Positions 4,604 to 22,636 of a stretch of DNA of 64,000 nt are shown here, piece by piece. The stretch lies in the NCBI GenBank assembly GCA_965197645.1, contig OZ240219.1, positions 1,984,001 to 2,048,000 on the forward strand. Direction: 5' to 3'. This stretch comes from Dehalococcoidia bacterium (GTDB lineage: Bacteria; Chloroflexota; Dehalococcoidia; Plut-88900). The translations under genes and the position numbers were made by a program. Within the stretch, counting starts at the first letter, position 1. Each line of letters starts with the position of its first letter. The notes under the pieces are model-generated. The model saw only the letters and a list, made by a program, of their open reading frames with translations, was not told the origin of the DNA and searched no databases.

Positions 4604-4686
4604 CTCACAGAGCCCCAACCACATCTCGAAGACCGTTCTTTCTACCGTCAAAATAGGCTCACCAGACTTGATGAAGTCAAGAACCT
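4604..4686 (-). repeat. att-like / serine-recombinase C-terminal tail scar, copy 1
   Basis: Minus strand reads VLDFIKSGEPILTVERTVFEMWLG; DNA similar to 14574-14635 and 21860-21910. Confidence 0.5.
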
Positions 4687-5164: not shown

Positions 5165-5593
5165 ATGCAACTTCGAGTTGCAGGTTTGGCAACAGGAGCG
5201 CTCGGCGCTGTTCTGCTGGTGATTGGCGCGCTTCTCCCCTGGCTAACGGTGCATGACCAGTCACACAATGGGCTAGACTTGGAGGACGGCTGGCTCACCG
5301 TAGGACTAGGGGTAGCGGCTTTGGTCATCCTGTTGTTGGTTACCATCTTCGGGCGGACTGGGAGATGGATGGCCCTCATAGGTGGCTTTCTGGTCTTGGC
5401 AATGGGCGTTCTCAACACATTCGCAGCGGTGATAGATATGGATCTCGGCACCGCTGACGCGCTCCTAGGCGCCTCCGTTGCTTATGGGCTGTATGTTGTC
5501 CTTATCGGGGGCATCCTTATGGGGCTCGCGGGCTTGGCCCTTCTCGTCTTAGGAGCCAAGGGTAGTCTCGGCCGGACAGCTTCCTCCTCCTGA
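5165..5593 (+). CDS. Small membrane protein (about 4 TM)
   Basis: Strong RBS AGGAGG; four hydrophobic segments. Confidence 0.75.
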   Translation: MQLRVAGLATGALGAVLLVIGALLPWLTVHDQSHNGLDLEDGWLTVGLGVAALVILLLVTIFGRTGRWMALIGGFLVLAMGVLNTFAAVIDMDLGTADALLGASVAYGLYVVLIGGILMGLAGLALLVLGAKGSLGRTASSS

Positions 5594-5748
5594 CCCGGGT
5601 GGAAGGCATGACAAGGCCGTCCAGCCCAACTCCTCCTTCCGGGAGGTCCCAGTTCGGAAACTCTCTAGTTCACCCGCAAGCTGGAGCACGCCGGCGCCTT
5701 CAAGTCCCCGCTCGGGGCGGAACGGCGTCAGAGTCGTCTCCATTACCG

Positions 5749-5905
5749 GCAGGCCCGCGGGTTGACCGCACTCGGAGATGCCAAATCGGCGCAAGTAGAG
5801 TTTGCTTCGGTCAGCGCCGGGTGGCTCCACACCTGCGGGGTGAGGACCGACGGCACCGTCGGATGCTGGGGCCGCAGTAATTTTGGCCAAGCTTACCCAC
5901 CTAAT
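5749..5905 (+). pseudogene. Remnant of an RCC1-repeat gene (linker plus one blade)
   Basis: DNA resembles the 13491-13560 linker and the last repeat (SVSAGWLHTCGVRTDG..CWG) of 11742-14405; no start or signal peptide. Confidence 0.65.
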
Positions 5906-5968
5906 CCAAAGGTCAAGTGATGAGGATCCAACAAGTTTCAAGTTAGGGGCGTTAAGGACGTGAAAGCA

Positions 5969-7345: not shown

Positions 7346-7410
7346 CTGAGGTGCAAGACGTAGCTGCCGCACCCGTTCGGGGCGTCTGAACGGAATTGGG
7401 TATCCGAACC

Positions 7411-7439
7411 TTACATCCGGCTTGGAGGCTCACTACGAT
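7411..7439 (+). promoter_or_regulatory. Duplicate promoter TTACAT-N17-TACGAT
   Basis: ttacatccggcttggaggctcactacgat is nearly identical to 5037-5065. Confidence 0.55.
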
Positions 7440-7540
7440 TTAGGTTGGCGAGGGCTGCTTTTCGGGCGGCAAGCCTTGTCATGGGCGCCGAAAAGTCCAG
7501 GCAATCATACGGCGTTAGGAGATAGGAGAAAGGAGCGAAA

Positions 7541-9760
7541 ATGTCGAAGTCCATTACAAGCAGTGTGCTGCTCGCGGGCGCGATACTCCTCGCCATTCTC
7601 CTGCCCGGATGTTCCGATGAGCCGACCCCTTCGCCGGTGGCCAAGATTACTCCTAGCTCCACGGCCACCGCAACCCTGACGCCAGCTCCCATAGCTACAC
7701 CATCACCCGCTCCTACGGCAACGGTCACCGCAACCCTGACGCCTACGGCTACTCCTACACCCACTCAGACCGCGATGCCCACGGCCACTCCGACGCCCGT
7801 TCCGACTGCAACACCGACCGCCACGCCCACTCAGACCGCCACGCCCACAGCCACTCCGACGCCCACTCCAGTTCCCACGGCTACACCCACTCCGACTCCT
7901 ACACCAACGCCAACTCCCACGCCTCCTCCCGATCTAGTGATTGACACTCCAACGCTGAGCGACAGCAGTCCGATGACGGACCAAGCCCTCACGCTAAGAG
8001 TCACCGTGGGGAATCGGGGCAGCGGTCCCTCGGGGCCCACTACGCTCACCTACTACCGCTCCGACGACTCGACGATCACGCCCGCCGATACCGAGGTGGG
8101 CACGGACGGGGTTGCCGGGCTCGGTGCATCGGAGAGCGGCGCAGAGTCAATCCTCACCTATGCGCCGTCCACACCGGGCGCCTATTACTACGGCGTCTGC
8201 GTGGACTCGATGCCCGGCGAGTCCGATACAACCAACAACTGCTCCGCCGTGGCGGCTGCAACCGTTTCGGAGTTCGACATTGACAATCTTCCGTGGGTCG
8301 CCGACGAAGTAACCGGCGACGAGCGGCAAGCGATGGACCACATTCGCGTCCTCGCTACAATCGACCGTTCGATGGCCCAGCGAGTAGCGGGCTCACCGTG
8401 GCTCTCCGACGGAGTAACCGAAGATGAGCTGCGGATGTTGGATGACCTCCTTGACTTGGCCGGAGTCCACTCGGAAATAGCCGTCTTGGTGACAACCGCG
8501 CCCGATGAGACAGGGCGTCTCATTGAGGCCTTCCTGTCTTCACTGCAATGGATACTCTCCAGTGACCCTGGCAGGTCGGAGCAGTTCCTGGGTCAACCAT
8601 GGTTCCAAGATGGGCTGACGGAAGAGGAGGCTGCGCTGATCGTAGTGTTGCAAGACGCCGCGGATTCAGAGGACGTATTCCGGGACCTCCTCCAGGGTGG
8701 CCATGTGCGGTCGGACACGATCTCCCTGCCCCTGGCTGGTGAGGTGGACCTGTTTGCAGTCGGCAGGTCGGAGCTGTGGCTGGAGGGAACACTTGAAAGA
8801 ATGGCTTTCGCAGTCGAGTCGATGGAGGCTTTCATGGGCACACCCTGGCCACAGCCCGACGTCATCGTGCTTCTGGAACTCGAAAGTGACATGGGTTATG
8901 GCGCAGCCGGGTGGAACTCCGGCACTCACGTTGTGGCGAAGAACACGTCCAAGGATCTCACCTACCACGAGTTGGCCCACTTCTATTTTGGCGGCAACGT
9001 TCCGTGGTGGTTATCAGAAGGCTCGGCGGACTTCCTGATGCTCCACATCAATCGGTTGACCGGAGACGAATTTCCCTTTGGCTCTCTCTATATCCATGAC
9101 CAGATTCGCATACTTGAAGTGTGCGCTCCTCATGGCTCAGCCAATGTCCAGGGGTTCATCGAGACCGGGACGGGGGACTCCTATTGTCCGTATCTGCTTG
9201 GGCGTCAGTTCCTGGCGGGAATGTATCGAACCCTAGGGCATGAGGTGGTTTCGTCAGCTCTGCGGGAGTTATACGAGACAGGTGAGGGCATTGGCAGGAC
9301 CGCGACGGAAGACGAGATTTACCGGGCGTTTCTGACGAACACCCCGTCATCGCAGCGGAATGACTTTCAGTTCTGGTATCACTGTCTTCATGGCCGCTCA
9401 ATTCCCGGCTATACCGCTGCAACCAAGCCCGCGGCCCCGCCCGACAACAGAGGCGCACTGGTTGCGCTCTACAACGCCACCAACGGTCCGGGCTGGAAGA
9501 ACAGTGAGAACTGGCTGAGCGAGGCTCCCCTCGACGAATGGCATGGCGTGGCCACCGACTGTGACGGCTCTGTTATTGGGCTGAAGCTGATAGAGAATCA
9601 GTTAACCGGCCCTATACCGCCGGAATTGGGCAGGCTATCCAATTTAATAGAGCTAAACCTCTGGGGCAATCAGCTGACCGGCTGCGTGCCGGCAACACTG
9701 AAGGTCAGCGAAACCAACTACACAGAAGGACTGGGTTTGGAGGTCTGCACGGACTCCTAG
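7541..9760 (+). CDS. Lipoprotein: Pro/Thr linker, CARDB-like domain, gluzincin metallopeptidase, short LRR tail
   Basis: Lipobox LLPGC; PDLV...VTVGNRG (CARDB-like); YHELAH...WLSEG; [15 protein letters not shown] cap and [12 protein letters not shown]. Confidence 0.8.
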
Positions 9761-9861
9761 CCACCCCAGAACTTGAGATGGCCAGGAAAGAGACTGTGAC
9801 TCGCGGGAGGTTACCGCCTCCGACTAATGAGGAGGCAGGCCCACTTAAGGACGTGAAAGCA

Positions 9862-11652
9862 ATGTCGAAGTCAATCATTGGTCTGCTGGTGAGCGCCGCG
9901 GTTCTCGCCATGCTCCTGCCCGGATGTTCCGATGAGCCGACCCCTTCGCCGGTGGCCAGGGTTCTTCCTAGCGCCACTGCTACACCGATATCCGTTCCTT
10001 CGGCAACGGCCACTCAGACCGCCACGTCCACAGCCACTCCGACGCCCGTTCCCACGGCAACGCCCACTCAGACCGCTACGCCCGCAGCCACTCCGACACC
10101 CGTTCCCACGGCAACGGCCACTCAGACCGCCACGTCCACAGCCACTCCGACGCCCGTTCCCACGGCAACGCCCACTCAGACCGCTACGCCCGCAGACACT
10201 CCGACACCCGTTCCCACGGCAACAGCCACTCAGACCGCCACGTCCACAGCCACTCCGACGCCCGTTCCCACGGCAACGCCCACTCAGACCGCTACGCCCA
10301 CCGCCACAGCAACCTCAGAGGCGACTGCAACGGCGACACCTGCGCCTGAAGCACGCGATCTCTACCGGGCGATTCGTGAGGGTAATCGTGACGCTGTTCG
10401 TAATCTCGTGGCCGCCGGCATGGATGTTAACGCAACAGTTCAAGAAAGTTCAGGCCTCTTAAATCCCTCGAGCCAAACCGGGCCGCTCCTCTACTGGGCG
10501 ATTCGGAACGGCGACCCTGAAATTGTCTGGATTCTCGTGGACGCAGGCGCGGATGTTAACGCTACATTTCGACTACGTTCAAGCAGCCTGTTCGGCTTAA
10601 TCGATTCAAGCACCACGGTCACCGCACTCCTTGACTATGCGATTCGGGGAGGCAAGGTTGAAATTACCCGGATTCTCGTGGACGCAGGCGCGAAGTACGA
10701 CGATGGCGTGGACCCTCTGCATCTTGCGGCTGAATACAAACAAACTAAGAAACAAGATGCACTGAATTGGGCACTGCTGAATGCGGTGGAAGACATGGAT
10801 CTGGCAAAGGTCCAAGCGCTACTGGTCGAAGGAGCCGACATAAATGGGAAGGTCCATGGCCAGACGCCACTGCAGATAGCTGCGGAAAGCAACGAAAACC
10901 CGCTGGTGATCCAGGCTTTGCTGGACGCCGGGGCCGATATCAATGCGAAGGACGTATGGGGCCAGACGCCACTGCAGATAGCTGCGGAAGGCAACGAAAA
11001 CCCGCTGGTGATCCAGGCTTTGCTGGACGCCGGGGCCGATATCAATGCGAAGGACACATGGGGCCAGACGCCACTGCAGATAGCTGCGGAAAGCAACGAA
11101 AACCCGCTGGTGATCCAGGCTTTGCTGGACGCCGGGGCCGATATCAATGCGAAGGACGTATGGGGCCAGACGCCACTGCAGATAGCTGCGGAAGGCAACG
11201 AAAACCCGCTGGTGATCCAGGCTTTGCTGGACGCCGGGGCCGATATCAATGCGAAGGACACATGGGGCCAGACGCCACTGCAGATAGCTGCGGAAAGCAA
11301 CGAAAACCCGCTGGTGATCCAGGCTTTGCTGGACGCCGGGGCCGATATCAATGCGAAGGACACATGGGGCCAGACGCCACTGCACCATGCGGCGGGAAGC
11401 AACGAAAACCCGCCGGTGATCCAGGCTTTGCTGGACGCCGGGGCCGATATCAATGCGAAGGACACATGGGGCCAGACGCCACTGCAGATAGCTGCGGCAA
11501 GCAACGAAAACCCGCTGGTGATCCAGGCTTTGCTGGACGCCGGGGCCGATATCAATGCGAAGGACACATGGGGCCAGACGCCTCTGGAAGTAGCAAAGGA
11601 CGAAAGAAACTCTGAGGCCAGCAAGTTGCTTGAAGAAGCGGCTGCTTCTTGA
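9862..11652 (+). CDS. Ankyrin-repeat lipoprotein
   Basis: Lipobox LLPGC, repeated Pro/Thr linker, GQTPL..AA...[12 protein letters not shown] repeats. Start chosen by homology with the sister lipoproteins. Confidence 0.9.
10858..11571 (+). repeat. Seven near-identical 102-bp tandem units (34-aa ankyrin repeats)
   Basis: Units begin ggccagacgccactgc; 7 x 102 bp spans 10858-11571 exactly. Confidence 0.9.
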
Positions 11653-11741
11653 AGCAACCTGCCTTTGCCCACCATCACATCTGGCCTGTGACAGGTCAAG
11701 GGATGCCGGGCTGACAAGTTTAAGGAAAGGACGTGGAAGCA

Positions 11742-14405
11742 ATGTCAAAGTCAATCATTGGTCTGGTGCTGAGCATCGCAGTATTCGCCATCCTGCTAAC
11801 CGGGTGTTCCGATGAGCCAGATCCCATTCCTTCAAACGGGACCGATTCTAGCACCACCTCATCGGAAGCTACGGAAGCTGCAACGCCCGCAGACACGTCG
11901 ACTGCCGCCGCACCAAAGACCAAGTCCGCCGGGGAGTTCGCCTCGGTCAGCGCGGGGGAAAGACACACCTGCGGGGTGAGGAGCGATGGCTCCGTTGAAT
12001 GCTGGGGCTGGGATGTATTTGGCCAATCCATGCCTCCGTCAGGGGAGTTTGTGTCGGTCAGCGCCGGGGAGGGCCACACCTGCGGGTTGAGGCGGGATGG
12101 CTCCGTCGAGTGCTGGGGATTGAATTTCTTTGGTCAAGCCACCCCGCCGTCCGCGGAGTTCTCCTCCATCAGCGCCGGATGGAACCACACCTGCGGGGTG
12201 ACGAGGGATGGTTCCGTCGAGTGTTGGGGCTCGAATTTCTATGGTCAAGCCACGCCGCCGTCCGCGGAGTTCGCCTCCGTCAGCGCGGGGGCATTCCACA
12301 CCTGCGGAGTCAAGCTTGACAGCTCCGTCACCTGCTGGGGGTCCAATGAAGGCGACTTTGGAGCGGAGCTTGGGCAGGCCACGCCGCCGTCAGGGGAATT
12401 CGCCTCGATCAGTGCCGGAGGATTCCACACCTGCGGAATGAGGACCGACGGCTCCGTCGAGTGTTGGGGAGACAACGCTGATGGCCGGACCACACCGCCG
12501 TCAGGGGAATTCGCCTTGATCAATGCTGGGGGATTCCACACCTGTGGGGTGAAGCGCGACGGCTCCGTCGAATGCTGGGGTCATGATGGCTATGGCCGGA
12601 CCACGCCGCCGTCCGGGGAGTTCGCCTCGGTCAGCGCCGGGGGGTTCCACACCTGCGGGGTGAGACCCGACGGCTCCGTCGAATGCTGGGGTCATGATGG
12701 CTATGGCCACGCCACTCCGCCGTCCGGGGAGTTCACCTCCGTCAGCGCCAGCAATGTCCACACCTGTGGGGTGAGGACCGACGGCTCCGTCGAATGCTGG
12801 GGCAATGATGATAACGGCGAGGCCACTCCGCCGTCCGGGGAGTTCACTTCGGTCAGCGCTGGGGAGTTCCACACCTGCGGAGTGATGCGCGACGGCTCCG
12901 TCGCCTGCTGGGGCGATGATGAACATGGCGAGGCCACTCCGCCGTCCGGGGAGTTCGCCTCGGTCACCGCCGGGGGGTTCCACACCTGCGGTGTGAGGAC
13001 CGACGGCTCCGTCGAATGCTGGGGCAATGATGATAACGGCCAGGCCACTCCGCCGTCCGGGGAGTTCGCCTCGGTCACCGCCGGGGGGTTCCACACCTGC
13101 GGGGTGAAGGCCGACGGCGGCGTCGAATGCTGGGACAATGATGATAGCGGCGAGGCCACTCCGCCGTCCGGGGCGTTCGCCTCGGTCAGCGTCGGATGGA
13201 ACCACACCTGCGGGGTGAGGACCGACGGCTCCGTCGAATGCTGGGGCCGCGACAAATATGGAGAAGCCAAGCCTCCGTCCGGGGAATTTACCTCTGTCAG
13301 TGCTGGGGTCCGGCACACCTGCGGGGTGAGGACCGACGGTTCAGTCGAATGCTGGGGCTCCAACGAAAATTCCGATGAACACGAGGTTGGCCAAGCCACG
13401 CCGCCGTCCGGGGAGTTCGCCTCGGTCAGCGCTGGGGCGTTCCACACCTGCGGGGTGAGGCGGGACGGCTCCATCGCGTGCTGGGGTGAACAGGCCCGCG
13501 GGCTGACGGCTCCGCAAGGAGAAGCCAAAGCGGAGCAAGTAGAGTTCATCTCGGTCAGCGCCGGGTTTTTTCACATCTGCGGGGTGAGGACCGACGGCGC
13601 CGTGGAATGCTGGGGACTCAACGAGGATGACAAGGGCAATGTTGTTGGTCAGGCCACACCGCCGTCCGGGGAGTTCGCCTCGGTCAGCGCCGGGGGAGGC
13701 CACACCTGCGGGGTGAGGACCGACGGTTCAGTCGAATGCTGGGGACTCAACGAGGATGGCGAGGCTGCGCCGCCGTCCGGGGAGTTCACCTCCGTCAGCG
13801 CCGGGGCGTTCCACACCTGCGGGGTAAGGCGCGACGGCACCGTCGAGTGCTGGGGATTCAACGAGGATCACGAGGGCAATGTTGTTGGTCAGGCCACGCC
13901 GCCGTCCGGGGAGTTCGCCTCGGTCAGCGCCGGGACGTTCCACACCTGCGGGGTGAGGACCGACGGCGCCGTCGAGTGCTGGGGATTCAACGAGGATGGG
14001 GACAGCAATGTTGTTGGTCAAGCCACGCCGCCGTCCGGGGAGTTCGCCTCGGTCAGCGCCGGGTTTTTCCATACCTGCGGGGTGAGGACCGATGGCGCAG
14101 TCGAATGCTGGGGCTTCAACAAGGATGACAAGGGCAATGTTGTTGGTCAGGCCACACCGCCGTCCGGGGAGTTCGCCTCGGTCAGCGCCGGGACGTTCCA
14201 CACCTGCGGGGTGAGGGCCGACGGCTCCGTCGAATGCTGGGGCTCTAATGATGATTTCGGCGGCAATGTTGTTGGTCAAGCTACTCCACCGCCAGGGGAG
14301 TTCGCTTCGGTCAGCGCCAGGTGGCTCCACACCTGCGGGGTGAGGACCGACGGCTCTGTCGAATGCTGGGGGTTAAACGAGGATGGCCAAGCCACTCTGC
14401 CCTAA
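11742..14405 (+). CDS. RCC1/BLIP-II-like beta-propeller lipoprotein, 21 blades
   Basis: Lipobox LLTGC; 21 SVSAG..HTCG..DGSVECWG repeats arranged 14 + linker + 7. Confidence 0.9.
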   Translation: MSKSIIGLVLSIAVFAILLTGCSDEPDPIPSNGTDSSTTSSEATEAATPADTSTAAAPKTKSAGEFASVSAGERHTCGVRSDGSVECWGWDVFGQSMPPSGEFVSVSAGEGHTCGLRRDGSVECWGLNFFGQATPPSAEFSSISAGWNHTCGVTRDGSVECWGSNFYGQATPPSAEFASVSAGAFHTCGVKLDSSVTCWGSNEGDFGAELGQATPPSGEFASISAGGFHTCGMRTDGSVECWGDNADGRTTPPSGEFALINAGGFHTCGVKRDGSVECWGHDGYGRTTPPSGEFASVSAGGFHTCGVRPDGSVECWGHDGYGHATPPSGEFTSVSASNVHTCGVRTDGSVECWGNDDNGEATPPSGEFTSVSAGEFHTCGVMRDGSVACWGDDEHGEATPPSGEFASVTAGGFHTCGVRTDGSVECWGNDDNGQATPPSGEFASVTAGGFHTCGVKADGGVECWDNDDSGEATPPSGAFASVSVGWNHTCGVRTDGSVECWGRDKYGEAKPPSGEFTSVSAGVRHTCGVRTDGSVECWGSNENSDEHEVGQATPPSGEFASVSAGAFHTCGVRRDGSIACWGEQARGLTAPQGEAKAEQVEFISVSAGFFHICGVRTDGAVECWGLNEDDKGNVVGQATPPSGEFASVSAGGGHTCGVRTDGSVECWGLNEDGEAAPPSGEFTSVSAGAFHTCGVRRDGTVECWGFNEDHEGNVVGQATPPSGEFASVSAGTFHTCGVRTDGAVECWGFNEDGDSNVVGQATPPSGEFASVSAGFFHTCGVRTDGAVECWGFNKDDKGNVVGQATPPSGEFASVSAGTFHTCGVRADGSVECWGSNDDFGGNVVGQATPPPGEFASVSARWLHTCGVRTDGSVECWGLNEDGQATLP

Positions 14406-14573
14406 TATCGGTGTTGCCAGGCCCACTTGCCAGGATCCGAAATGGTTTCGCACGCTCTCTCGACTAATGAAGCACAATCTAGATTGAGACTTCCCACCGA
14501 AAAGTTCGCAGTACATTACACTCTGGCCCACGTGGAGAGGCTCGAAATCCCCGTAAGGATCTCTGTGCCCATG

Positions 14574-14635
14574 CTCACAGAGCCCCCAACCACAACTCGA
14601 AGATAGTTCCACCTACCATCCACTTAGGCCCACCC
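14574..14635 (-). repeat. att-like / recombinase-tail scar, copy 2
   Basis: Minus strand reads GGPKWMVGGTIFELWLGAL*; ctcacagagcc(c)ccaaccaca..tcgaaga shared with copy 1. Confidence 0.5.
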
Positions 14636-14889
14636 AGCCGAACAGGCAATGGACGTAGCGGCCGATATGCTACTGGACAAGGTATAAGTAACGGGGTACG
14701 CTCTAAGCTCCTCCTCTCTAGTAGAGCGGACCACTCCGCTGATTTTCTAGCCAGTACTTGAAGCCATCGATAGCGGGTCTGCTGGGAACCGGCATACGGA
14801 GAGAACCCTCCCCAACCGGCTGGTGGATGACGATCACCCCCCCGCGTGATTCGTTTGTAGAAGTGGACGCCAATACCGGAGAATGACCG

Positions 14890-16746
14890 ATGTCGACTGA
14901 AGAGACGATCAAGAAAACTCTGCAACGCACGATGCTGGAAGCCCTATCCGACTCTCGGGTTCAGGCGCTTCTGTCCGGTGACATGGCTCCTGGAGACCTG
15001 CGGAAGTTTTTCCGCAACTTTATCGTCACACACCTGAACTCGGTCCAGATACTCTCGTTCCTGTTTGCTGTAGCTCCCCGGGAGCCCTCCGACCTTGTGA
15101 AGGGGAACCTGCTGGAGGAGATGGGGCTGGATGGGGGGGAGACGTCCCACCCGGAGATGCTGATAGACCTAGCGCGAGGAGTCGGCTTTTCCGAGGAGGA
15201 TATGGTGCGGCTCAAAACCGAGGCGGAAGAAGAGCGCCGGGTGTTCGGATCGGAGAGGATGCCTTACGAAAGCCTGAGGGACCTGGGGTTCTCGATGTTA
15301 CTCGAGACCGTCACATTTGAGACTTTCCTGTCTCGGGCCAGCGATAAGATAGCCGAGTCGATGACCCGCCACTACGGCCTTTCCCAACAGGACGTGCAGT
15401 GGTTCACTTTGCACGGGGAAGTCGATGCTCGCCACGTCGAAGAAGGCAAACGCACGATTCAAGGCTACATCTCGTACTACGAGTTTCGCCCGGACGAAGT
15501 TGAGGGAATCTTGGCGAAGACGTTCGAACGGAACGTCGTCCTGAAGCGGTACTTCCCGGTAAACCCCAAGTCTGGTCGTAGGCCGGCCCGGGTCGAGAGC
15601 CTAGAGGTGTTGCCTCTGCAAATCCCCTTCAACCGAGCCTTCGTCCATTCCAAGACCAGCCGCTCGACAAGCGACTCCGTCATCGTTCGGCTGACGAGCG
15701 GCGACGGGGTCAAGGGGTACGGGGAAGGGCTGCCGAGGCACTACGTGACGGGGGAGGACATAGCCGGAGTAGTAGAGACGCTAAGGGGCAAGCTGGGGCC
15801 GGAGGCGATGAAGCTGGATTTCGAGTTGGGCTTGGGGGCGGTGGAACAGGTCAGGTCTTTCATAGAGGAGCGGGTTGGGCGTGTACCAAGAGAGTCGGGC
15901 GTCGTGGCGTGGAACGCTACGCTGTGCGCATTGGAGTTGGCTTTGCTGGACTGGACGTTTAAGCGCTCCGGCGAGTCGATTGCCACATGGCTGAGCCCGA
16001 CCCGAGGACACGTGGCTTATACGGGCATTATAGACGCTTCGGACCCACAGGTAGCCCGCGCGATGGCAGAGCGGTACGTCCGGGCGGGGTTCAGGAATCT
16101 GAAGGTAAAGGTCGGGCTGGATGATGATGTTAGTCGAGTGAAAGCGGTCAGGGAGGCCGCAGGAGAAGATGTTGCTATCAGGGTTGATGCCAACGGCGCA
16201 TGGTCAGCCCCCGAGGCTGTCCTGGCTTTGAATCAGCTACGGATGTTTCGCATAACTGCAGTCGAGCAGCCGGCTCCTGCTTCCGATCTCAAAGGGATGA
16301 GGCGGGTGAGGGAAGAGACGGGCAACACCGTCATCGCTGATGAGTCGCTCGTTACTCTCGATGATGCCTTCGACCTCATCCGGGAGAAGGCTTGCGATGT
16401 GTTCAACGTTCGCATTTCCAAATGCGGGGGGTTGCTCTCTTCCTTGCGAATAGCTGAGCTTGCCCTGGAGTCGGGTATAAGGGTGCAGGTGGGGGCACAA
16501 GTGGGGGAGACTTCTATTCTGTCGGCGGCGGGGCGGCATCTCGCTGCCCATTTGCGGGAAGTGGAGTACGTGGAAGGCTCCTTCGGGACGCACCTTCTCA
16601 GCGGGGACATTACCAGGGATCCGGTCATGTTCGGCTACGAGGGCCGAGGAGGTTTGGTCTCTGGCCCCGGGCTGGGCGTCGATGTGGACGACGAGGCACT
16701 CGAAAGGTTTGCCGACGGCGTAGTACGGGTGGAAGGCGAAGGCTGA
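14890..16746 (+). CDS. Fusion of a heme-oxygenase-like diiron oxidase (CADD/PqqC/TenA fold) and an enolase-superfamily (MLE/Ala-Glu epimerase subgroup) domain
   Basis: N-part: EEMG..SHPE...E...HGEVDARH metal-ligand pattern. C-part: LKVKVG (KxK), RVDANG, EQP, ADES, SKCGG. Confidence 0.8.
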   Translation: MSTEETIKKTLQRTMLEALSDSRVQALLSGDMAPGDLRKFFRNFIVTHLNSVQILSFLFAVAPREPSDLVKGNLLEEMGLDGGETSHPEMLIDLARGVGFSEEDMVRLKTEAEEERRVFGSERMPYESLRDLGFSMLLETVTFETFLSRASDKIAESMTRHYGLSQQDVQWFTLHGEVDARHVEEGKRTIQGYISYYEFRPDEVEGILAKTFERNVVLKRYFPVNPKSGRRPARVESLEVLPLQIPFNRAFVHSKTSRSTSDSVIVRLTSGDGVKGYGEGLPRHYVTGEDIAGVVETLRGKLGPEAMKLDFELGLGAVEQVRSFIEERVGRVPRESGVVAWNATLCALELALLDWTFKRSGESIATWLSPTRGHVAYTGIIDASDPQVARAMAERYVRAGFRNLKVKVGLDDDVSRVKAVREAAGEDVAIRVDANGAWSAPEAVLALNQLRMFRITAVEQPAPASDLKGMRRVREETGNTVIADESLVTLDDAFDLIREKACDVFNVRISKCGGLLSSLRIAELALESGIRVQVGAQVGETSILSAAGRHLAAHLREVEYVEGSFGTHLLSGDITRDPVMFGYEGRGGLVSGPGLGVDVDDEALERFADGVVRVEGEG

Positions 16747-16748
16747 AT

Positions 16749-18407
16749 ATGTCGCTAATGTCCCAATTGTCTGGGCTAAAAGGGCGATGGTCGTGGCGCA
16801 GGTTCGAGCGTTCTGCCAAGCATCCTGAGGAATCCCAGTCGCGACTCCTTCAACGTATCCTGGAAGGCAACAGCGACACGGCCTACGGTAGGGCACACGG
16901 TTTTACGGAAATGAGGTCGGCCGAGGATTACAGGGGCGGTGTGCCCATCGGGGACTACGAGGCGTTTCGCCCGTGGGTCGAACGGCTTAAGGAGGGTGAA
17001 TGCAACATACTGACCGCTGAGGACCCGTACATGTTCAACCTGACAAGCGGCACAACCGGCCATCCGAAGTTCATCCCCGCTACCCGATCCACGGCGCAAA
17101 TGACCAAACGGTTGTCCCGGCTATGGCTATACCGGTGTCTCGTGGACCATGCCAAAGTGCTTGATCACAAGGCGCTGGTGATCGTGAGTCCGGCTATCGA
17201 GGGATATACGACCTGCGGCATTCCTTTTGGGTCGGCTTCCGGGAACATATACAGTAATGCGTCCTGGGTAATACGGCGACGGTACGCCATTCCCTATCCC
17301 GTGTTCACCATCAAGGATTACCAGGCCAAATACTATGCCATCATGCGGTTCGCCATCGAACAGCGGGTCTCCCTGGTCGCTACTCCCAGTCCTAGCACTG
17401 TCCTGAGGTTGGTTACGACGGTGGACACGCACCGAGACCAAATGATAAGGGACGTACATGACGGTACTCTCTCCAAGAACATAGACATCTCGTCAGAGGT
17501 GCGCGAGGAGGTCGAGGCAAGACTCGAACCGAACCCGAAGCGCGCTAGGGCATTGGAAAGGACCATTGAAGACACGGGATCACTCAGGCCTAAGGACTAC
17601 TGGCCGGAGTTGGCGTTGATCGGTTGCTGGAAGGGCGGGAGCGTGGGAGCTACTGTGGACAGTCTGCGTCCCTGGTTTCGGAAGGGAATGCCCTTTCGTG
17701 ACATCGGATATCTCTCCAGCGAGGCCTCCGTAACGCTTCCCACTGAGGACGAAGGATGTAGGGGAATCCCGGCCCTGGGTGCGAACTACTACGAGTTTAT
17801 CCCCGAGAACGAAATTGAGAGTGGCAACCCTTCCGTTCTAGGTGTTGAGGCGCTGGAGGACGGCGAGAGCTACTATATTCTCTTGACCTCACCCAATGGC
17901 CTCTACCGGTACGACATTAACGACGTTGTACGGGTTGCGGGTTACCATAACAGGACACCCTTGTTGGAGTTCATGCGGAAGGGTCGGGACATGATTAACC
18001 TGGAAGGTGAGAAGCTGCACGTGTCCCAGTTGATTCAGGCAGTTGAGGCGGCGCGGGAGTCCATGGGAATCGGCATTGAATACTACCGGGCCGTGGGGCG
18101 CGCCGAGGAGTCCCGGTACGCTTTGCAGATAGAGTTCAAGGCAAACCCGGTTGCAGACGAGGCAGTCGTTCGGCTTGGGCGAGCCATTGATGACAGCTTG
18201 TCGGGGCTGAACATCGAGTACAATCAGAAAAGACGGTCGCGGCGGCTTCATCCTCCCGCTGTGCAGGTGATGGCCCAGGGCTGGTCTTCGCGGCGACTAG
18301 AGGCCAAGCTTGGCCGAGCCGTTAGGGATGTCCAGTTCAAAGACGAGCTGCTGGGACTGCATGACGAAAACGACGGTGGTGAAGTGCAGAGAGAGCTCGA
18401 CATTTAG
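16749..18407 (+). CDS. GH3-family acyl-adenylate-forming amido synthetase
   Basis: Motifs TSGTTGHPKFIP, YLSSE and GLYRYDINDVV; starts 2 nt after the upstream stop. Confidence 0.9.
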   Translation: MSLMSQLSGLKGRWSWRRFERSAKHPEESQSRLLQRILEGNSDTAYGRAHGFTEMRSAEDYRGGVPIGDYEAFRPWVERLKEGECNILTAEDPYMFNLTSGTTGHPKFIPATRSTAQMTKRLSRLWLYRCLVDHAKVLDHKALVIVSPAIEGYTTCGIPFGSASGNIYSNASWVIRRRYAIPYPVFTIKDYQAKYYAIMRFAIEQRVSLVATPSPSTVLRLVTTVDTHRDQMIRDVHDGTLSKNIDISSEVREEVEARLEPNPKRARALERTIEDTGSLRPKDYWPELALIGCWKGGSVGATVDSLRPWFRKGMPFRDIGYLSSEASVTLPTEDEGCRGIPALGANYYEFIPENEIESGNPSVLGVEALEDGESYYILLTSPNGLYRYDINDVVRVAGYHNRTPLLEFMRKGRDMINLEGEKLHVSQLIQAVEAARESMGIGIEYYRAVGRAEESRYALQIEFKANPVADEAVVRLGRAIDDSLSGLNIEYNQKRRSRRLHPPAVQVMAQGWSSRRLEAKLGRAVRDVQFKDELLGLHDENDGGEVQRELDI

Positions 18408-19411
18408 GTCCTGTACAAGTCTCGTTGATGAACATGGTTGCCGTGTAATAGCAAAATGATGTTCGTTGAGCGTTTCGATGCAGTCGGCGTAGGAGTCGGC
18501 AGTGGCGCACTGTTAAGTGTGGACCGCCAAGGGCCAATTGACCCGGTAGCCTGATTGCGGTTTTACTCCGAGAAGCGCTATGAAGGTCTCTCTGGATGAA
18601 GCGTACGTCAAACTGAAGGCCATGACCGAAGCCGCAGACCTCCTTCGGAGACGATACCGTAGGGCTGACCGCGTTGGCACGTATACGTGAATCAAGCCAA
18701 CGGAATAGATTAACTGAGTCTACGGGACCAGCCTCGCCCGGCTGTACCGGGACGAAACATACCTGCGAGTTGAACAAATCCTGCACTGTACAGAGGGTGT
18801 AAGTCTAAGCCCACAGCCAGTCGAGGTCGGAGAAGGCGAGCTTCCGCTCGAAATTCTCGATGTTCACTCTTTGGAATCAATAAACACGGAAAACTCAGAT
18901 ACTCATGGGCGGTCGGTTTGGGTCCATTCAAGCCGGGGCGGATTTTTAGACAACAGTCTGCTGCGAGATGGCGAGGCCGCCGCAAACGGACTTCACGTCT
19001 CCTAGATGTCCATCTTCGGCTGCCAGCAACCTGTCCTTGGCCTACCCTTGCCTGAGGTCCTCATGCCGGCAGACCCTGTTCCGGTGCTGACCTGCAAATC
19101 TCTCGTGCTCAGGCCTGTACAGAAAATGGAGCAACGTCAAGTGGGTTGGTATAAGATAACGTGTGTTACAGAGGCTGGGTGCACGTCAAGAGCTGTTAGG
19201 CCTCATGGAGGAATTGACGATGTCACTTGAGATTCACGAATACGGCCATAGATATCGGCGAATCTGTTCGCAGATCCCTGAAGTCCAGTCTACCGGATGA
19301 AGGAAAAACCTGGTGGTCGACAGCAATCCGAGCATGCCCAGGCTCGCCTCTCACCAGACAGTTCCACTGTCATCCTATAGACTTCGAAAGTACACAGTGA
19401 GACTATAGACG

Positions 19412-20320
19412 ATGATTGAACGATTTGCAGGCCAAAAAGGGCGCAGCACTTCCATCGAGGCGCTTAGAAACCAGTCAGCACTCCTTGGAGAAGCTGGCCT
19501 TGGAGAGGCAGTCTACGATCAGGCTGAAATCCTTGGATTTGAGCCAGGCGAAACGATCATAGAAGAATCAGATCCAACCAACGACGTATACTTCATCCTG
19601 TCCGGAATCGTCTCGATTAGAGTAAATGGGCGGGAAATAGCTGTGAGAACACCTGGACAACACGTGGGGGAGATGGCTGTCCTGGATCCAGGGCAACGAA
19701 GATCCGCATCCGCCGTTGCAGAGGATGACGTGGTGGTCGCCCGCGTGGACGCGTTGACACTAACCACAATCGGTGAATCTTTTCCACAACTATGGAAAAA
19801 TATCGCCCGTCAGCTTTCTGAACGACTTCGGCAAAGGAACCGTCACGTTCTTCCCGTCAATCCTCGCCCCGTTCTGTTCGTGGGCTGTTCAACTGAGTCT
19901 CTCAATATTATTCGTGAAATCCAGATTGCCCTGGGCCACGACCCGATCATCGTCAAGCTGTGGACGGACGGCATCTTTAATGCTGGCAGCTTTCCACTAG
20001 AGTCTTTGGAGCGGGAGCTAGAAAAAGTCGATTTTGCCGTCCTCGTCCTTTCACCAGACGATATCGTGATTAGCCGAGACTCCGCAACCGATGCGCCTCG
20101 GGACAACATTGTGTTTGAGTTGGGATTCTTTATGGGGGCCTTGACTCGCTCGCGCACTTTCCTACTTGTTCCACGGGGCGTCGACTTCAAGCTGCCGACC
20201 GACTTGGTGGGAATAACTCCTTTGACGTACAGCCCTGAGATGGAGCCAGCTACTGCCGCCGCTGTGGCGGGGGCGTGCACGGAGTTGAGAAACCTCATAC
20301 TGGCAATCGGACCACGTTGA
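19412..20320 (+). CDS. pycTIR: Pycsar effector: cyclic-nucleotide-binding domain plus TIR (NADase-like) domain
   Basis: cNMP-binding motifs VYFILSG, GEMA, RRSASA; TIR-like LFVGCS...DFAVLVLSPDD...PRDNIVFELG...LPTDL. Confidence 0.88.
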   Translation: MIERFAGQKGRSTSIEALRNQSALLGEAGLGEAVYDQAEILGFEPGETIIEESDPTNDVYFILSGIVSIRVNGREIAVRTPGQHVGEMAVLDPGQRRSASAVAEDDVVVARVDALTLTTIGESFPQLWKNIARQLSERLRQRNRHVLPVNPRPVLFVGCSTESLNIIREIQIALGHDPIIVKLWTDGIFNAGSFPLESLERELEKVDFAVLVLSPDDIVISRDSATDAPRDNIVFELGFFMGALTRSRTFLLVPRGVDFKLPTDLVGITPLTYSPEMEPATAAAVAGACTELRNLILAIGPR

Positions 20321-20340
20321 GGTTTCTGGAAGATCAAACT

Positions 20341-21033
20341 ATGTCACTTGGTGACGATCTGAAATCGGAAGTCAAAAAAGTCCTAAAGGAGAGATGGACG
20401 ACACGTCAAGGACGAGTCGTACCTGATCCTGAGGACTTGGGCCTTGGCAACGATGCCGTACTGCTAGACGGCACGGTTCTCTACGCGGATCTAAATGGCT
20501 CGACCAACTTGGTCGAAACTAGGAAGCCGGAGTTTGCAGCTAAAGTCTACAAGTGTTTTTTGACGTGCGCCGCCAGAATCATCCGAGCCGAAGGCGGAGA
20601 GATTACAGCGTATGACGGCGACCGAATCATGGCTGTATACCTAGGCAAATCCAAGAATACTGATGCTGCCTCTACTGCTCTTAAGATAAATTATTCAGTT
20701 GCGAAAATCATCAACCCTGCCCTAAAGGACCAGTATCGTGGCACTTCATATGCTGTACAACATGTAGTTGGCATCGACACCAGTAACCTCTTCGTGGCAC
20801 GGATTGGCGTTCGGGGAGATAATGACCTTGTGTGGGTCGGCCGAGCTGCTAACTACGCGGCTAAGCTGTCGGATGGAGCTGGCGCACCTAGTCAGATTAC
20901 CGCCGACGTTTACAGCAAAATGCGCAAGTCATCAAAGTATAGCGAAGACGGACGGAGTATGTGGGTACAAGCTACCGCTCCGGCACTAGGAAACAAGACG
21001 ATTTACACCTCAACCTGGCGGAGGACGATTTAA
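20341..21033 (+). CDS. pycC: Pycsar pyrimidine (probably uridylate) cyclase
   Basis: TVLYADLNGST, AYDGDR, VVGIDTS, RIGVRGDNDLVWVGRAANYAAKL; closely resembles Burkholderia cepacia PycC as recalled. Start placed at ATG 20341. Confidence 0.9.
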   Translation: MSLGDDLKSEVKKVLKERWTTRQGRVVPDPEDLGLGNDAVLLDGTVLYADLNGSTNLVETRKPEFAAKVYKCFLTCAARIIRAEGGEITAYDGDRIMAVYLGKSKNTDAASTALKINYSVAKIINPALKDQYRGTSYAVQHVVGIDTSNLFVARIGVRGDNDLVWVGRAANYAAKLSDGAGAPSQITADVYSKMRKSSKYSEDGRSMWVQATAPALGNKTIYTSTWRRTI

Positions 21034-21165
21034 CGGACACTGCAAAACCCTTGTGGATCATCGATTTCGGACATTGCCACGGGACCTCCGATCAGAGGAA
21101 TCACTGATCTAACCGCCAGGCATCTGGAGCACCGCTCCCATGACCGACCGCCAGGGCAGGAAGCG

Positions 21166-21745
21166 TCACGTGGAACACAGCATCGAGGCGTGGCGAGGCA
21201 GACTAAGTACGCGGAACACATCATCTGGTTCCTCTCGCTGCTTCATGCGGAGGTCCGGGTCCATGCCTTTGATGGCTTCGGTGATATCCAGCTGGCGCTG
21301 AAGACCTACCGGGAACAGTACGCTGATAATGTACTCATCCTCAGACACGCCCTCTCCGGGTCCGGGGGCATCGTCCAACGCATCCTTGAGGGCCATCTGG
21401 CAGACCAGCACGCCGTCGTGCCAGTCGGCGACTTCTTCCGGCGGATTCACTGCGTCCAGTCGCTCCGTGAAATCTTCCAAAGCCGCCGAGAATTTCTCGA
21501 GGGCGAAATCCCCGTCATCGGGCCCAGACGTAGCTCCGGCACATATCGCCGGTAGTCGTAGAGAGACGTTGGGGAAGTGTCTTGCACCCGGTCAGCCAGA
21601 GTCGACGCTGGGGTGCTCTTTGGGGTTTTATCCTCGTCGTCCCAACCTCCGAGGGCATAGAGCTATCCCCACAGGCGACAAAGGTCATCAGGATAACCGA
21701 TAGCGCCACCAGGGTTAAGAGACTGCGTATTCCGGACTTGCTCAT
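21166..21745 (-). pseudogene. Frameshifted lipoprotein gene
   Basis: Signal peptide and lipobox (MSKSGIR...FVAC) and a protein-like segment (VNPPEEVADWH) lie in different frames. Confidence 0.55.
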
Positions 21746-21859
21746 GACAGTGTGTTCTCCTGCCTTGGATTTTCAGCGATCAATTACCTCTCTCAGACCG
21801 TGCCGCGTGTCCATGAATTCATCTCCCTTGCGTTGCGGGCCGCGTCAGCCGGCGAACAG

Positions 21860-21910
21860 GTGACCGAGCCACATCTCAAAGATGGTGGTATCTACCGTAA
21901 GCGCTGGTGG
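21860..21910 (-). repeat. att-like / recombinase-tail scar, copy 3
   Basis: Minus strand reads PPALTVDTTIFEMWLG; ccacatctc.aaga...tctaccgt shared with copy 1. Confidence 0.5.
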
Positions 21911-21991
21911 ATTCGACTGTCCCGACCACCTGCCGCCGGCCGTGCTCCACACATGCCGCCTCTCTGCCCTTTGGTTGCTCCTCAGTGCGGA

Positions 21992-22636
21992 CTACCGCCG
22001 CCGTCTACGGATAAATGCCACACCGCCGCCTACTACCAGGACTACCCCGGCAGCCACCAGGACGATCAACCATGCCAGCACACCGCCAATCGACTCCTGT
22101 GCTGGAGGGGTCGGGGAAGCGGCCGTCGCCGGGGCGGCAGTCGGTTCGGGCGCCGAGGTGGCGGTTGGCGTGGGCGCGAGTGTGGGAGTGGGCGTCGGTG
22201 TCGGCGCCGAACCGACGCGGACCTGCGAGTCTCCGGTCACGCTGCTTTCCTGCCGGTCGACGTTCTTGATTTTGCCTGTGAAGGTATACTGCGCTTCCAC
22301 TGCAGGGACGGTCACGTTGTAGGTGAAACTGGTTTCCCCCAGGAGGTTGAACCGGATGGTCTGCCCATCTACCTCGATATGGGCATCCTCAAGGCTGGCG
22401 CTTACGAAGGTGAACCCCTCCGGCAACTCTTCGACCACTTGGCCGATGGGGCCGTCATTGCTCGTGGTGATTGTGATCCGCAGCTCGCTGCCGGGCGCAG
22501 CCCAGTCCTGCTGAAAGGTCCTAGTGGCGCTGTGGGACTGTGCCTCTACGCCGTCGGGCTGCGCCATCAGCCCAACGCCGCCCACAATGGCGGCGATTGC
22601 CAGGGCAGCAATTGCTCCAAGGGGAGTTCGGATCAA
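21992..22636 (-). CDS. Membrane-anchored surface protein with a cohesin/Ig-like beta-sandwich domain
   Basis: RBS AGGAGG + TTG; signal peptide, beta-rich domain (GQVVEELPEGFTFV...SFTYNVT), Pro/Thr linker, C-terminal TM helix and RRRRR. Confidence 0.8.
   Translation of the reverse strand: MIRTPLGAIAALAIAAIVGGVGLMAQPDGVEAQSHSATRTFQQDWAAPGSELRITITTSNDGPIGQVVEELPEGFTFVSASLEDAHIEVDGQTIRFNLLGETSFTYNVTVPAVEAQYTFTGKIKNVDRQESSVTGDSQVRVGSAPTPTPTPTLAPTPTATSAPEPTAAPATAASPTPPAQESIGGVLAWLIVLVAAGVVLVVGGGVAFIRRRRR

Follow-up and report, generated by a model that had tools for sequence, protein, structure and literature searches.

Two adjacent genes encode an oxidase-enolase fusion and a GH3 ligase

The window analyzed here is the whole 64,000-nt stretch of DNA from a Dehalococcoidia bacterium (Chloroflexota; Plut-88900) that spans positions 1,984,001 to 2,048,000 on the forward strand of contig OZ240219.1 (assembly GCA_965197645.1). 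The open reading frames recovered from it include the two genes, 2 nt apart, that the initial annotation had singled out. The first fuses a heme-oxygenase-like dimetal oxidase (HDO) domain to an MLE-subgroup enolase domain, and the second encodes a GH3 ligase (Table 1); we refer to this unit and its relatives as the cassette. Both genes are intact, real, and under purifying selection, with dN/dS values of about 0.05 to 0.13 for cassette genes, dS being saturated in comparisons against the window. The predicted structure of the fusion protein (pTM, 0.88) suggests that its two domains are packed in a defined way. The intergenic DNA around the cassette yielded no sigma-70 promoter, an Rfam search of the region gave a single sub-threshold chance match, and three intergenic stretches read in six frames contained no Pfam family in any of the 18 frames.

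Table 1. Features of the locus, in window coordinates
Feature	Position	Strand	Basis
Further repeat copy	4604-4663	+	blastn, mismatch scan
Imperfect direct repeat left of cassette	14574-14634	+	blastn, mismatch scan
Gene 1, HDO-enolase fusion	14890-16746	+	618-aa ORF
HDO domain (fusion residues 1-226)	14890-15567	+	PF14518, CADD alignment, conservation, fold search
MLE-subgroup enolase domain (C-terminal half of gene 1)	15583-16746	+	PF13378, PDB alignments, clade conservation, fold match
Gene 2, GH3 ligase (acyl-adenylate/amide synthetase)	16749-18407	+	552-aa ORF; Pfam GH3, GH3_M, GH3_C; JAR1; motifs; conservation
Pycsar pair (outside pathway): cNMP-binding TIR effector, 19412-20320; PycC cyclase, 20341-21033	19412-21033	+	PADLOC
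Imperfect direct repeat right of cassette and Pycsar	21869-21898	+	blastn, mismatch scan

The HDO domain has an intact predicted dimetal site

The N-terminal domain of the fusion matches Pfam Haem_oxygenas_2 (PF14518; residues 38 to 193, E = 2e-16), and its model (pLDDT, 94) adopts a seven-helix heme-oxygenase-like fold. The closest structure is Fe/Mn CADD (Z = 19.3, RMSD = 3.0, 203 aligned residues, TM = 0.74), ahead of HrmI (Z = 17.4), FlcD (Z = 16.0), and UndA (Z = 15.8), in keeping with the CADD/PqqC-like assignment made at the outset. Profile alignment to CADD predicts the ligands E77, H87, E144, H175, D179, and H182, which correspond to the E-H-E-H-(D/E)-H dimetal motif of the HDO family (PMC11363339). 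All six ligands that had been described are present, and each is conserved in 46 or 47 of 47 aligned HDO domains; H48, E139, and W171 are further invariant residues.

The fold and the E-H-E-H-D-H ligand spacing are shared with CADD, the 4-aminobenzoate synthase of Chlamydia. However, the two proteins are only 17% identical, and the cassette HDO adds the three invariant residues and lies beside an enolase or is fused to one. CADD is a self-sacrificing pABA synthase whose sacrificial residues are Tyr27 and Lys152. Across the 47 HDO domains, the Tyr27 column holds F (26), Y (10), V (4), L (3), or W (2), with V24 in the window, and the Lys152 column holds I, M, L, V, or F and never Lys (0/47), with I154 in the window. 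Since neither residue is conserved and the domain scores 30 bits against a TIGR04305 cutoff of 200, we rejected a CADD-type self-sacrificing synthase. By sequence, the cassette HDO appears to be an uncharacterized subfamily with extra invariant active-site residues.

The enolase domain carries an arginine at the strand-6 catalytic position

The C-terminal half of the fusion matches Pfam MR_MLE_C (PF13378; residues 390 to 603, E = 5e-51), and its best fold match is 2p88 (Z = 48.8, RMSD = 1.9, 365 aligned residues). It has the capping domain and barrel, the strand-2 KxK motif (K405/K407), and the predicted D-E-D Mg ligands (D433, E459, and D484), and to this extent the initial annotation of the domain stands. 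The distal lysine that had been read as catalytic does not: K511 aligns with the second-shell K271 of Bacillus subtilis dipeptide epimerase (BsDE), and the catalytic position, BsDE K268, is held by Arg508. Arginine occupies this position in 83 of 84 fusions and in 141 of 151 members of the wider clade, whereas all five PDB epimerases and racemases aligned have lysine. A corresponding count of 77/77 in the fetched loci is circular, because the scan pattern demanded Arg, and was set aside as evidence. Dipeptide epimerases feature a DxD motif after strand 8. Here, E562-G-S occupies that position, aligning to the DFD of 1jpm and 3q45, and the AEE models score below their cutoffs. The enolase therefore lacks both the DxD of dipeptide epimerases and the Lys ending strand 6 that marks two-base racemases and epimerases (AEE and NSAR).

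Excerpts of a preprint (bioRxiv 10.1101/2022.03.03.481873) identify the catalytic lysine of strand 6 in BsDE as K268 and place K271 in the second shell. They further state that racemization needs the strand-6 lysine as acid/base, whereas in OSBS elimination it gives cation-pi stabilization only. Because Arg508 replaces the catalytic lysine and DxD is missing, the enolase is probably a lyase or cycloisomerase rather than the epimerase proposed earlier, and we consider a one-base enzyme likely. Such a one-base mechanism, eliminating or cycloisomerizing, would likely be shared with OSBS and muconate cycloisomerase. The domain nonetheless scores below the cutoffs of the OSBS/MLE models (TIGR02534, 159 versus 335; TIGR01928, 101 versus 201; PRK02901, 100 versus 288), and the annotated neighbors of cassette loci include no men or cat genes.

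Cationic cap residues are conserved in the clade (H253 in 133/141, R258 in 125/141, and R283 in 140/143), which suggests a second anion on the substrate and would favor a dicarboxylate over a simple lipid. In the Bacillus cereus N-succinyl-Arg/Lys racemase (BC0371), the residue aligned with R283 is D51, which we take to bind the cationic side chain. Known MLE-subgroup enzymes, including 2p88, share the fold, KxK, D-E-D site, and second-shell Lys with the cassette enolase but are only 26 to 30% identical to it and differ at the strand-6 Arg, the EGS in place of DxD, and the cationic cap. The Arg-type enolases, with at least 587 confirmed GTDB matches, are an uncharacterized MLE-subgroup clade.

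The second gene encodes a complete GH3 enzyme distinct from OlsH

Gene 2 carries all three Pfam domains (GH3, GH3_M, and GH3_C) together with T99SGTTGHPK, G320YLSSE, G384LYRYDIND, and a C-terminal Q529-F-K531, covering the three nucleotide-binding motifs defined for bacterial GH3 enzymes (PMC12493201). The description of a full GH3 enzyme is thus confirmed. A PDB search retrieved plant GH3s (E = 1e-31 to 1e-22), JAR1 (E = 2e-31) and the benzoate ligase GH3.12 among them. The fold and adenylation motifs are common to the plant enzymes (JAR1, GH3.5/6, and PBS3/GH3.12), but the acyl and amino-acid pockets differ. Plant Asp-conjugating GH3s carry Arg and Lys at two positions where gene 2, read from the JAR1 alignment, has Pro106 and Ala149. 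To our knowledge, plant GH3s have no comparable oxidase-enolase partner.

The single biochemically characterized bacterial GH3 that we found is OlsH of Singulisphaera acidiphila, which couples ornithine to fatty acids in partnership with an alpha/beta hydrolase (PMC12493201); the words "enolase" and "epimerase" are absent from the main text of that paper. OlsH/OlsI and the cassette have in common a bacterial GH3, the three nucleotide-binding motifs, and a small operon, and a sister group of the cassette pairs GH3 with an alpha/beta hydrolase as OlsH/OlsI does. Unlike the OlsH/OlsI pathway, however, the window unit has no acyltransferase or hydrolase gene. Gene 2 scores 77 bits against the NF052613 cutoff of 620, which, with the lack of an OlsI-type hydrolase gene in the unit, led us to reject a lyso-ornithine lipid synthetase. 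Its sequence points instead to a bacterial clade distinct from OlsH and uncharacterized. All GH3 matches in plasmids were below 29% identity, and the GenBank phage set contained none.

The cassette recurs across phyla around an enolase-GH3 core

The HDO-enolase fusion occurs in 88 protein clusters, so that it is conserved elsewhere, as is its pairing with GH3. Among the best 80 GTDB loci, which all neighborhood counts cover, GH3 lies directly 3' of the enolase in 68 and an HDO directly 5' in 48 (19 fused and 29 adjacent); 46 of these 48 have GH3 downstream. HDO-bearing loci span nine phyla and include cultured cyanobacteria, with intact unfused cassettes in Calothrix sp. PCC 7716, Leptolyngbya sp. 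PCC 6406, Dulcicalothrix desertica PCC 7102, and Nodosilinea sp. FACHB-131. The nearest relatives are Dehalococcoidia, among whose genomes the flanks of the cassette vary. Pairwise identities of HDO, enolase, and GH3 correlate (rho = 0.74 to 0.77 over 41 loci, uncontrolled by a neutral marker), and the trees of enolase and GH3 are congruent, with matching subclades across phyla. Twenty-eight of the 80 loci lack the HDO, and repeated loss or replacement has occurred inside its own clade, including in usually anaerobic lineages. Enolase and GH3 are a fixed core and the HDO is replaceable; its step may therefore be tailoring rather than a setup for the enolase. No plasmid carried the fusion or an enolase of this clade, the matches listed being at most 35% identical.

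Accessory genes at these loci include LplT-Aas (10/80, in three lineages), an ICMT/PEMT-type methyltransferase (10/80), an LCM-type carboxyl methyltransferase (4/80), a CocE/NonD hydrolase (11/80), a Hydrolase_4-type alpha/beta hydrolase (about 12/80), a lipid A acyltransferase (3/80), and MMPL (2/80). An FkbO/Hyg5-like gene is present in four, with a chorismatase-like score of 42 bits against a cutoff of 325. LplT-Aas, the carboxyl and lipid methyltransferases, and the CocE hydrolase suggest that the product is an N-acyl amino acid or amino lipid, and the neighborhoods lean toward one that is membrane associated; the FkbO/Hyg5-like gene would instead suggest aromatic acids. Clustered lipid accessory genes are absent from the window unit, which is the minimal, two-gene form of the cassette, and from four of its nearest relatives (L007 to L010).

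Two further proteins recur. A small membrane protein is encoded at 26 loci. Pfam and NCBIfam returned nothing for it, it falls in no named Atlas cluster, and it does not resemble the ICMT group. No locus has both this protein and one of the methyltransferases, a pattern that is not significant once phylogeny is taken into account, and we therefore do not claim that one substitutes for the other. A 450-aa protein fills the HDO position in six loci and lies beside the HDO in L024. Its resemblance to a beta-propeller (Lactonase in 42% of one Atlas cluster, and DUF1513) is a lead only; it matched no lactonase, and none of its PDB hits was significant. The DUF3050 protein of L066 gave no significant alignment with the HDO profile.

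Direct repeats bracket the cassette and a Pycsar pair

Three same-orientation repeat matches lie at 4619, 14590, and 21869, versus 0.10 expected and none in 100 shuffles, for a pattern derived from these copies; blastn gives the 61-nt pair E = 2e-9. The copies at 14590 and 21869 bracket the gene pair and a Pycsar system. The repeats are thus real, but their designation as att-like scars is unsupported: ARAGORN detected no tRNA genes in the window, and the frames and ORFs scanned contained no integrase or transposase family. An earlier repeat search over 14380 to 22100 had returned only short, chance-like pairs; the flanking repeat came from blastn and the mismatch scan. PADLOC identifies the Pycsar pair (PycTIR, 335 bits; PycC, 329 bits).

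A proposed pathway and its alternatives

The GTDB neighborhoods and GH3 motifs bear out a compact, conserved biosynthetic unit built on GH3, and we regard an amide-forming cassette as very likely. Our preferred reading, to which we give an even chance, is a mobile three-activity cassette that makes an oxidized, then eliminated or cyclized N-acyl amino acid, with a fatty-acyl amino lipid as the likeliest product. GH3, whose motifs are observed, would adenylate a carboxylic acid with ATP and couple it to an amino acid; whether the donor is fatty acyl seems to us evenly balanced. The HDO, judged from its intact site, would use O2 to oxidize the amino-acid part, either hydroxylating it or acting by desaturation/C-C cleavage, so that a beta-leaving group or an alkene results. 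The Mg-enolase, with K407 as the single base taking the alpha-proton and Arg508 merely stabilizing the enolate, as the residue swap suggests, would then beta-eliminate (dehydration), shift the alkene, or cycloisomerize without racemization, giving an alpha,beta-unsaturated or cyclic product. We slightly favor consecutive action of HDO and enolase. In relatives, the products of optional genes would add a methyl group to the carboxylate, acylate or transport the lipid, or hydrolyze the final compound. In the legionellol cluster, inactivation of the GH3 gene left product formation unchanged (PMC5640695), and an operon GH3 therefore need not be essential.

Several other readings account for part of these data. 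The fixed enolase-GH3 core and replaceable HDO would suit a PurC/PurB-like amidation, in which GH3 makes an N-acyl-aspartate, the enolase eliminates fumarate to leave a primary amide, as modeled on methylaspartate ammonia-lyase, and the HDO tailors. One base is enough for that elimination, and the conserved H253, R258, and R283 could receive an anionic side chain, R283 being a charge reversal of BC0371 D51 if D51 acts as presumed. Yet gene 2 has Pro106 and Ala149 in place of the Arg and Lys of plant Asp-conjugating GH3s, the enolase belongs to the MLE and not the MAL subgroup, and the fusion suggests coupled steps; we consider amidation unlikely. Similarly improbable is an aromatic, chorismate-derived pathway like that of plant PBS3/GH3.12, in which GH3 conjugates a benzoate-type acid that comes from the HDO or from a chorismatase, and the enolase aromatizes or eliminates like OSBS, a one-base MLE enzyme in the excerpted preprint (bioRxiv 10.1101/2022.03.03.481873). 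CADD as closest HDO structure, the FkbO/Hyg5-like proteins, and the GH3.12 match agree with it; the loss of the sacrificial CADD residues, the low chorismatase-like score, and the sub-cutoff OSBS models do not. An N-acyl amino acid racemase or epimerase giving a D-configured conjugate is quite unlikely: 7 of 151 clade members keep the strand-6 Lys, but nearly all fusions have Arg there, DxD is absent, and the same excerpts (bioRxiv 10.1101/2022.03.03.481873) require both lysines for racemization.

We find it very hard to credit that the cassette is an anti-phage system or works with the neighboring Pycsar. The cassette and Pycsar share the repeat-bracketed segment, and cassette flanks vary among Dehalococcoidia genomes. 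However, neither cassette protein has a match in the 2023 PADLOC library, the recurring neighbors are metabolic, and the Pycsar proteins gave no tblastn match in any fetched related locus, which leaves the suggested defense role unsupported. We are just as skeptical of a catabolic unit within the enolase expansion of SAR202-type Chloroflexota. The closest relatives are Dehalococcoidia and such expansions are reported, but excerpts of that report (PMC6946804) place nearly all SAR202 enolases in the mandelate-racemase subgroup, GH3 makes amides at the cost of ATP, and the operon is intact in photoautotrophic cyanobacteria. Finally, with a probability that we consider small, the cassette could provide a minimal pathway for an electrophilic N-acyl amino acid of the alpha-methylene or dehydro type: the HDO would hydroxylate an unactivated carbon, the fused Arg-type enolase would dehydrate, GH3 would acylate the amine, and the ICMT/LCM methyltransferases of relatives would cap the acid. 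If true, both the HDOs and the enolase superfamily would gain a new reaction, and a 50-year-old sponge metabolite class would have a bacterial origin.

Relation to known clusters and significance

The borrelidin cluster reportedly combines an OSBS/MLE-like enolase, a lysophospholipase-like hydrolase, and a GH3 (BorE/BorF/BorL; Olano et al., 2004) and is not known to include an HDO; unlike it, the cassette has no PKS. The gene order of locus L001 (P450, aminotransferase, dehydrogenase, GH3, F420 oxidoreductase, and ThrRS), which we take to be borrelidin-like, includes a GH3 28.6% identical to that of the cassette and outside its clade. BorE was not found in the plasmid records searched, and the "borL" of PMC13386636, considered as the borrelidin GH3, is a linker instead. 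In agreement with the initial annotation, which knew of no characterized cluster with this fusion, we found no paper on a GH3, enolase, and HDO cluster in a mostly open-access literature, although the HDO network of PMC11363339 (Figs. S52 to S61) may include the group.

The cassette is uncharacterized, with undescribed enolase-type and oxidase reactions, and most likely builds a modified acyl-amino acid. Its three activities, each from an uncharacterized subfamily, occur together in at least nine phyla, and a single experiment could therefore assign three new enzyme functions and uncover a widespread metabolite class. Because intact unfused versions exist in cultured strains, the pathway is directly testable.

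Organization and conservation of the two-gene unit

The initial annotation described a heme-oxygenase-fold dimetal oxidase (HDO)-enolase fusion and a full GH3 gene lying 2 nt apart, and both the ORFs and the Pfam assignments bear this out. The fusion contains Haem_oxygenas_2 (residues 38 to 193) and MR_MLE_C (residues 390 to 603), and AlphaFold modeled it as a whole with a pLDDT of 91 and a pTM of 0.88; the second gene contains all three GH3 Pfam domains. Every matching NCBIfam model, including those for OlsH, CADD, muconate cycloisomerase, and OSBS, scored below its own cut-off, and the three activities thus fall outside the named families. The window itself carries the two core genes only.

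Features of the window
Feature	Position	Strand	Description
Gene 1, HDO-enolase fusion	14890-16746	+	Intact ORF, 618 aa
Gene 2, GH3	16749-18407	+	Intact ORF, 552 aa
Imperfect direct repeats, three copies	4604-4663, 14574-14634, 21869-21898		30-60 bp, same orientation
Pycsar pair	19412-21033		Intact; cNMP-binding TIR effector, then PycC cyclase; PADLOC 335 and 329 bits
Lipoprotein paralogue array	5960-14405 and ~21166-21750	-	MSKS-type signal peptide, differing bodies
Very large surface proteins	22676-47115	-	Several, 953-3120 aa; apparent cadherin-like and other repeats (by eye)
72-nt repeat	49394-50075		Nine copies of a 24-codon unit

Both the fusion and its pairing with GH3 recur in other genomes. 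Using the HDO domain as the query recovered 88 protein clusters (50 to 91% identity; proteins of 339 to 1082 aa), 86 of which contain both Pfam domains and one of which is named from Methylomirabilales. When GTDB was scanned with the enolase-clade alignment, at least 599 stretches matched, at least 587 were confirmed, and the best 80 loci were kept. Among these 80, GH3 lies directly downstream in 68 and elsewhere in 2, is cut by the contig end in 5, and is absent from 5. As for the HDO, 19 loci have it fused and 29 adjacent (counting L047, a frameshifted fusion), 28 lack it, and 4 have it cut off. GH3 is downstream in 46 of these 48 HDO loci, whose tree labels name nine phyla: Chloroflexota, Binatota, Myxococcota, Acidobacteriota, Omnitrophota, Nitrospirota, Cyanobacteriota, Actinomycetota, and Fibrobacterota.

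The window's closest relatives, among the matches listed, are Dehalococcoidia MAGs (58 to 74% identity). The 18 full-length fused enolases fall on one side of a branch (support 98/94), a pattern that fits one fusion event common to Dehalococcoidia and Binatia. That node is not decided by the GH3 FastTree; elsewhere, the subclades agree between the enolase and GH3 trees. dN/dS against the window was ~0.05 to 0.13, with dS saturated, and 0.08 to 0.12 between two related loci, L007 and L009.

Predicted active sites

Modeled alone (pLDDT 94), the HDO half most closely matched Fe/Mn CADD, a Chlamydia HDO-family protein (Z 19.3; RMSD 3.0; 203 aligned residues), followed by HrmI, FlcD, and UndA. The intact E/H/E/H/D/H ligands previously noted are all present: a 47-domain HDO profile aligned to CADD predicts E77, H87, E144, H175, D179, and H182, each conserved in 46 or 47 of the 47 domains, and H48, E139, F143, W171, and Y221 are invariant (47/47). 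This set fits the E-H-E-H-(D/E)-H motif described in PMC11363339. By sequence, the dimetal site is intact yet differs from that of CADD, whose NCBIfam model gave the window fusion 30 against a cut-off of 200. At the positions of Tyr27 and Lys152, which CADD self-sacrifices, HDO domains have mostly Phe (Tyr in 10/47) and never Lys (0/47), making self-sacrificing pABA synthesis unlikely.

The enolase half of the model matched the N-succinyl-Arg/Lys racemase (NSAR) structure 2p88 (Z 48.8). Its KxK (K405/K407) and D-E-D (D433/E459/D484) are present, as initially annotated. In the capping domain, H253, R258, and R283 are conserved, and R283 aligns on D51 of 2p88, the residue that binds the cationic side chain there; this suggests that the substrate bears a second anion. 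The initial annotation's "distal K" does not correspond to the catalytic lysine: in the motif FNVRISKCGG, Arg508 aligns to K268 of the B. subtilis dipeptide epimerase and K511 to K271, so that the "distal K" is the second-shell residue. According to bioRxiv 10.1101/2022.03.03.481873, the strand-6 catalytic lysine is K268, K271 being second shell; racemization requires that lysine as acid/base, and in OSBS elimination it provides only cation-pi stabilization. Of 89 aligned fusion rows, 84 have a residue at this position, and it is Arg in 83 of them; in the wider clade, Arg is found in 141 of 151 rows and Lys in 7. EGS replaces the dipeptide-epimerase DxD. The enolase, as judged from these residues, is not epimerase-type, and we infer a one-base lyase, isomerase, or cycloisomerase.

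The window GH3 has all three nucleotide motifs defined in section 6 of PMC12493201 (T99SGTTGHPK, G320YLSSE, and G384LYRYDIND), and its top PDB match was JAR1 (E 2e-31). Window-type GH3s form a separate bacterial clade in the tree, distant from the borrelidin-cluster-like GH3 of L001 (28.6% identity); the NCBIfam model for OlsH, a characterized bacterial GH3, scored 77 against a cut-off of 620.

Neighboring genes

Family names for neighbors cover 35 chosen representatives, 14 more, and 83 of 190 further ORFs. Enolase and GH3 are the constant pair, joined by a third enzyme that varies. In a sister clade it is a Hydrolase_4-type alpha/beta hydrolase (about 12 of the best 80 loci, sometimes fused) or a lipid A acyltransferase (3 loci). 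Within the HDO clade, the HDO is missing from loci with a His-rich beta-propeller and an ICMT-type methyltransferase (6 loci, among them Lentisphaerota, Smithellaceae, and Spirochaetes) and from those with a HAD protein and a convergent P450 (3 loci). Accessories that recur among the best 80 are a CocE/NonD hydrolase (11 loci), LplT-Aas (10 loci, three lineages), ICMT/PEMT-type methyltransferases (10), P450 (5), LCM-type methyltransferases (4), and an FkbO/Hyg5-like protein (4). In the three nearest Dehalococcoidia loci (L004, L005, and L006), though not in the window, GH3 is followed by a flavin monooxygenase (FMO/ArsO-like). On balance, these neighbors favor an N-acyl amino acid of lipid character with a free or methylated carboxylate. 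A membrane protein of 140 to 160 aa, for which no family assignment was obtained, adjoins GH3 in 26 of the 80 loci (e.g., L061:13043-13474 and L011:12835-13290) and is a candidate exporter or resistance factor.

Several variants were seen in passing. Hydrolase_4 is naturally fused to an enolase of the same clade in P0154, P0169, and P0252, and this second fusion is followed by GH3 in L067 and L078. In L055, L069, and L073, the same Arg-type enolase accompanies a lipid A-type acyltransferase without GH3 (one locus reaches a contig edge). The conserved propeller-like protein (450 aa; L024, L026, L030, L033, L043, L079, and L083) matched no Pfam or NCBIfam family; it replaces the HDO in six loci, lies beside it in one, and frequently accompanies the FkbO/Hyg5-like protein and ICMT-type methyltransferase. 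In L002 (NZ_CP134684.1, 7983-17212), an operon on a Citrobacter plasmid, a distant GH3 precedes five radical SAM genes and an acetyltransferase; this cluster is unrelated to the cassette and apparently uncharacterized.

Genomic setting

Among ten Chloroflexota loci, flanking genes were mostly unshared, except between L007 and L009, which indicates that the unit moves as a cassette. Near it in the Dehalococcoidia relatives L005 (~5577-8542), L004, L008, and L010, translations suggest integrase-like and IS-like ORFs. Five copies (L004, L016, L018, L021, and L047) are truncated or frameshifted, which may reflect decay or assembly errors.

The window repeats, placed at 4619, 14590, and 21869 within the tabulated stretches, separate a lipoprotein block from a cassette-plus-Pycsar block; the second and third bracket the cassette, ~1 kb of apparently decayed DNA, the Pycsar pair, and a broken lipoprotein gene. 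The earlier proposal of att-like scars stands as to this bracketing; no tRNA was found in the window, nor any integrase family among the frames and ORFs scanned. The repeats fit insertion scars. Translated from the minus strand, each gives a similar peptide (T-V/I-F-E-M/L-W-L-G), so they could be either att-like sites or remnants of a single gene. The lipoprotein bodies include ankyrin and RCC1 repeats by Pfam, others being unassigned; a broken copy adjoins the third repeat, and the array suggests cassette-like shuffling. Such repeat proteins resemble those of sponge symbionts, which is only suggestive. The 72-nt repeat is probably, at a guess, a minus-strand leucine-rich-repeat-type gene.

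Proposed pathway and alternatives

In the reading we favor, to which we give an even chance, GH3 would make an amide, the HDO would oxidize its amino-acid part, and the fused one-base enolase would carry out an elimination, shift, or cyclization, leaving the N-acyl amino acid unsaturated or cyclic. It builds on the domains, intact sites, Lys-to-Arg swap, conserved linkage, and selection described here; the substrates, reaction order, and product are what we would propose. Against it, many relatives do without the HDO, the cationic cap points to a dicarboxylate, and, in PMC5640695, a GH3 knockout in the legionellol cluster had no effect on the product.

An aspartate-donor amidation module and a chorismate-derived aromatic conjugate are both unlikely. 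Racemization by the enolase, an option in the initial annotation, is improbable because it needs the strand-6 lysine, where Arg508 stands, and the DxD is EGS. The suggested defense role is highly improbable: PADLOC matched neither cassette protein, and neither Pycsar protein was matched among the fetched loci. Cassette and Pycsar seem to be cargo of the same variable region rather than parts of one system. We consider a catabolic unit equally remote.

The amide-forming pathway may resemble OlsH-type amino-lipid synthesis in its working, to which the cassette would add oxidation-elimination tailoring. The borrelidin cluster, too, brings together an enolase, a lysophospholipase-like hydrolase, and GH3. 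By the tests run, the cassette lies outside the OlsH, CADD, dipeptide epimerase, NSAR, OSBS, and MLE families, and the literature searched gave no description of it, in agreement with the initial annotation. The cassette is real, conserved, and uncharacterized: it joins known enzyme folds in a new way, and at least one of its active sites is clearly deviant. Cultured cyanobacteria make it testable.
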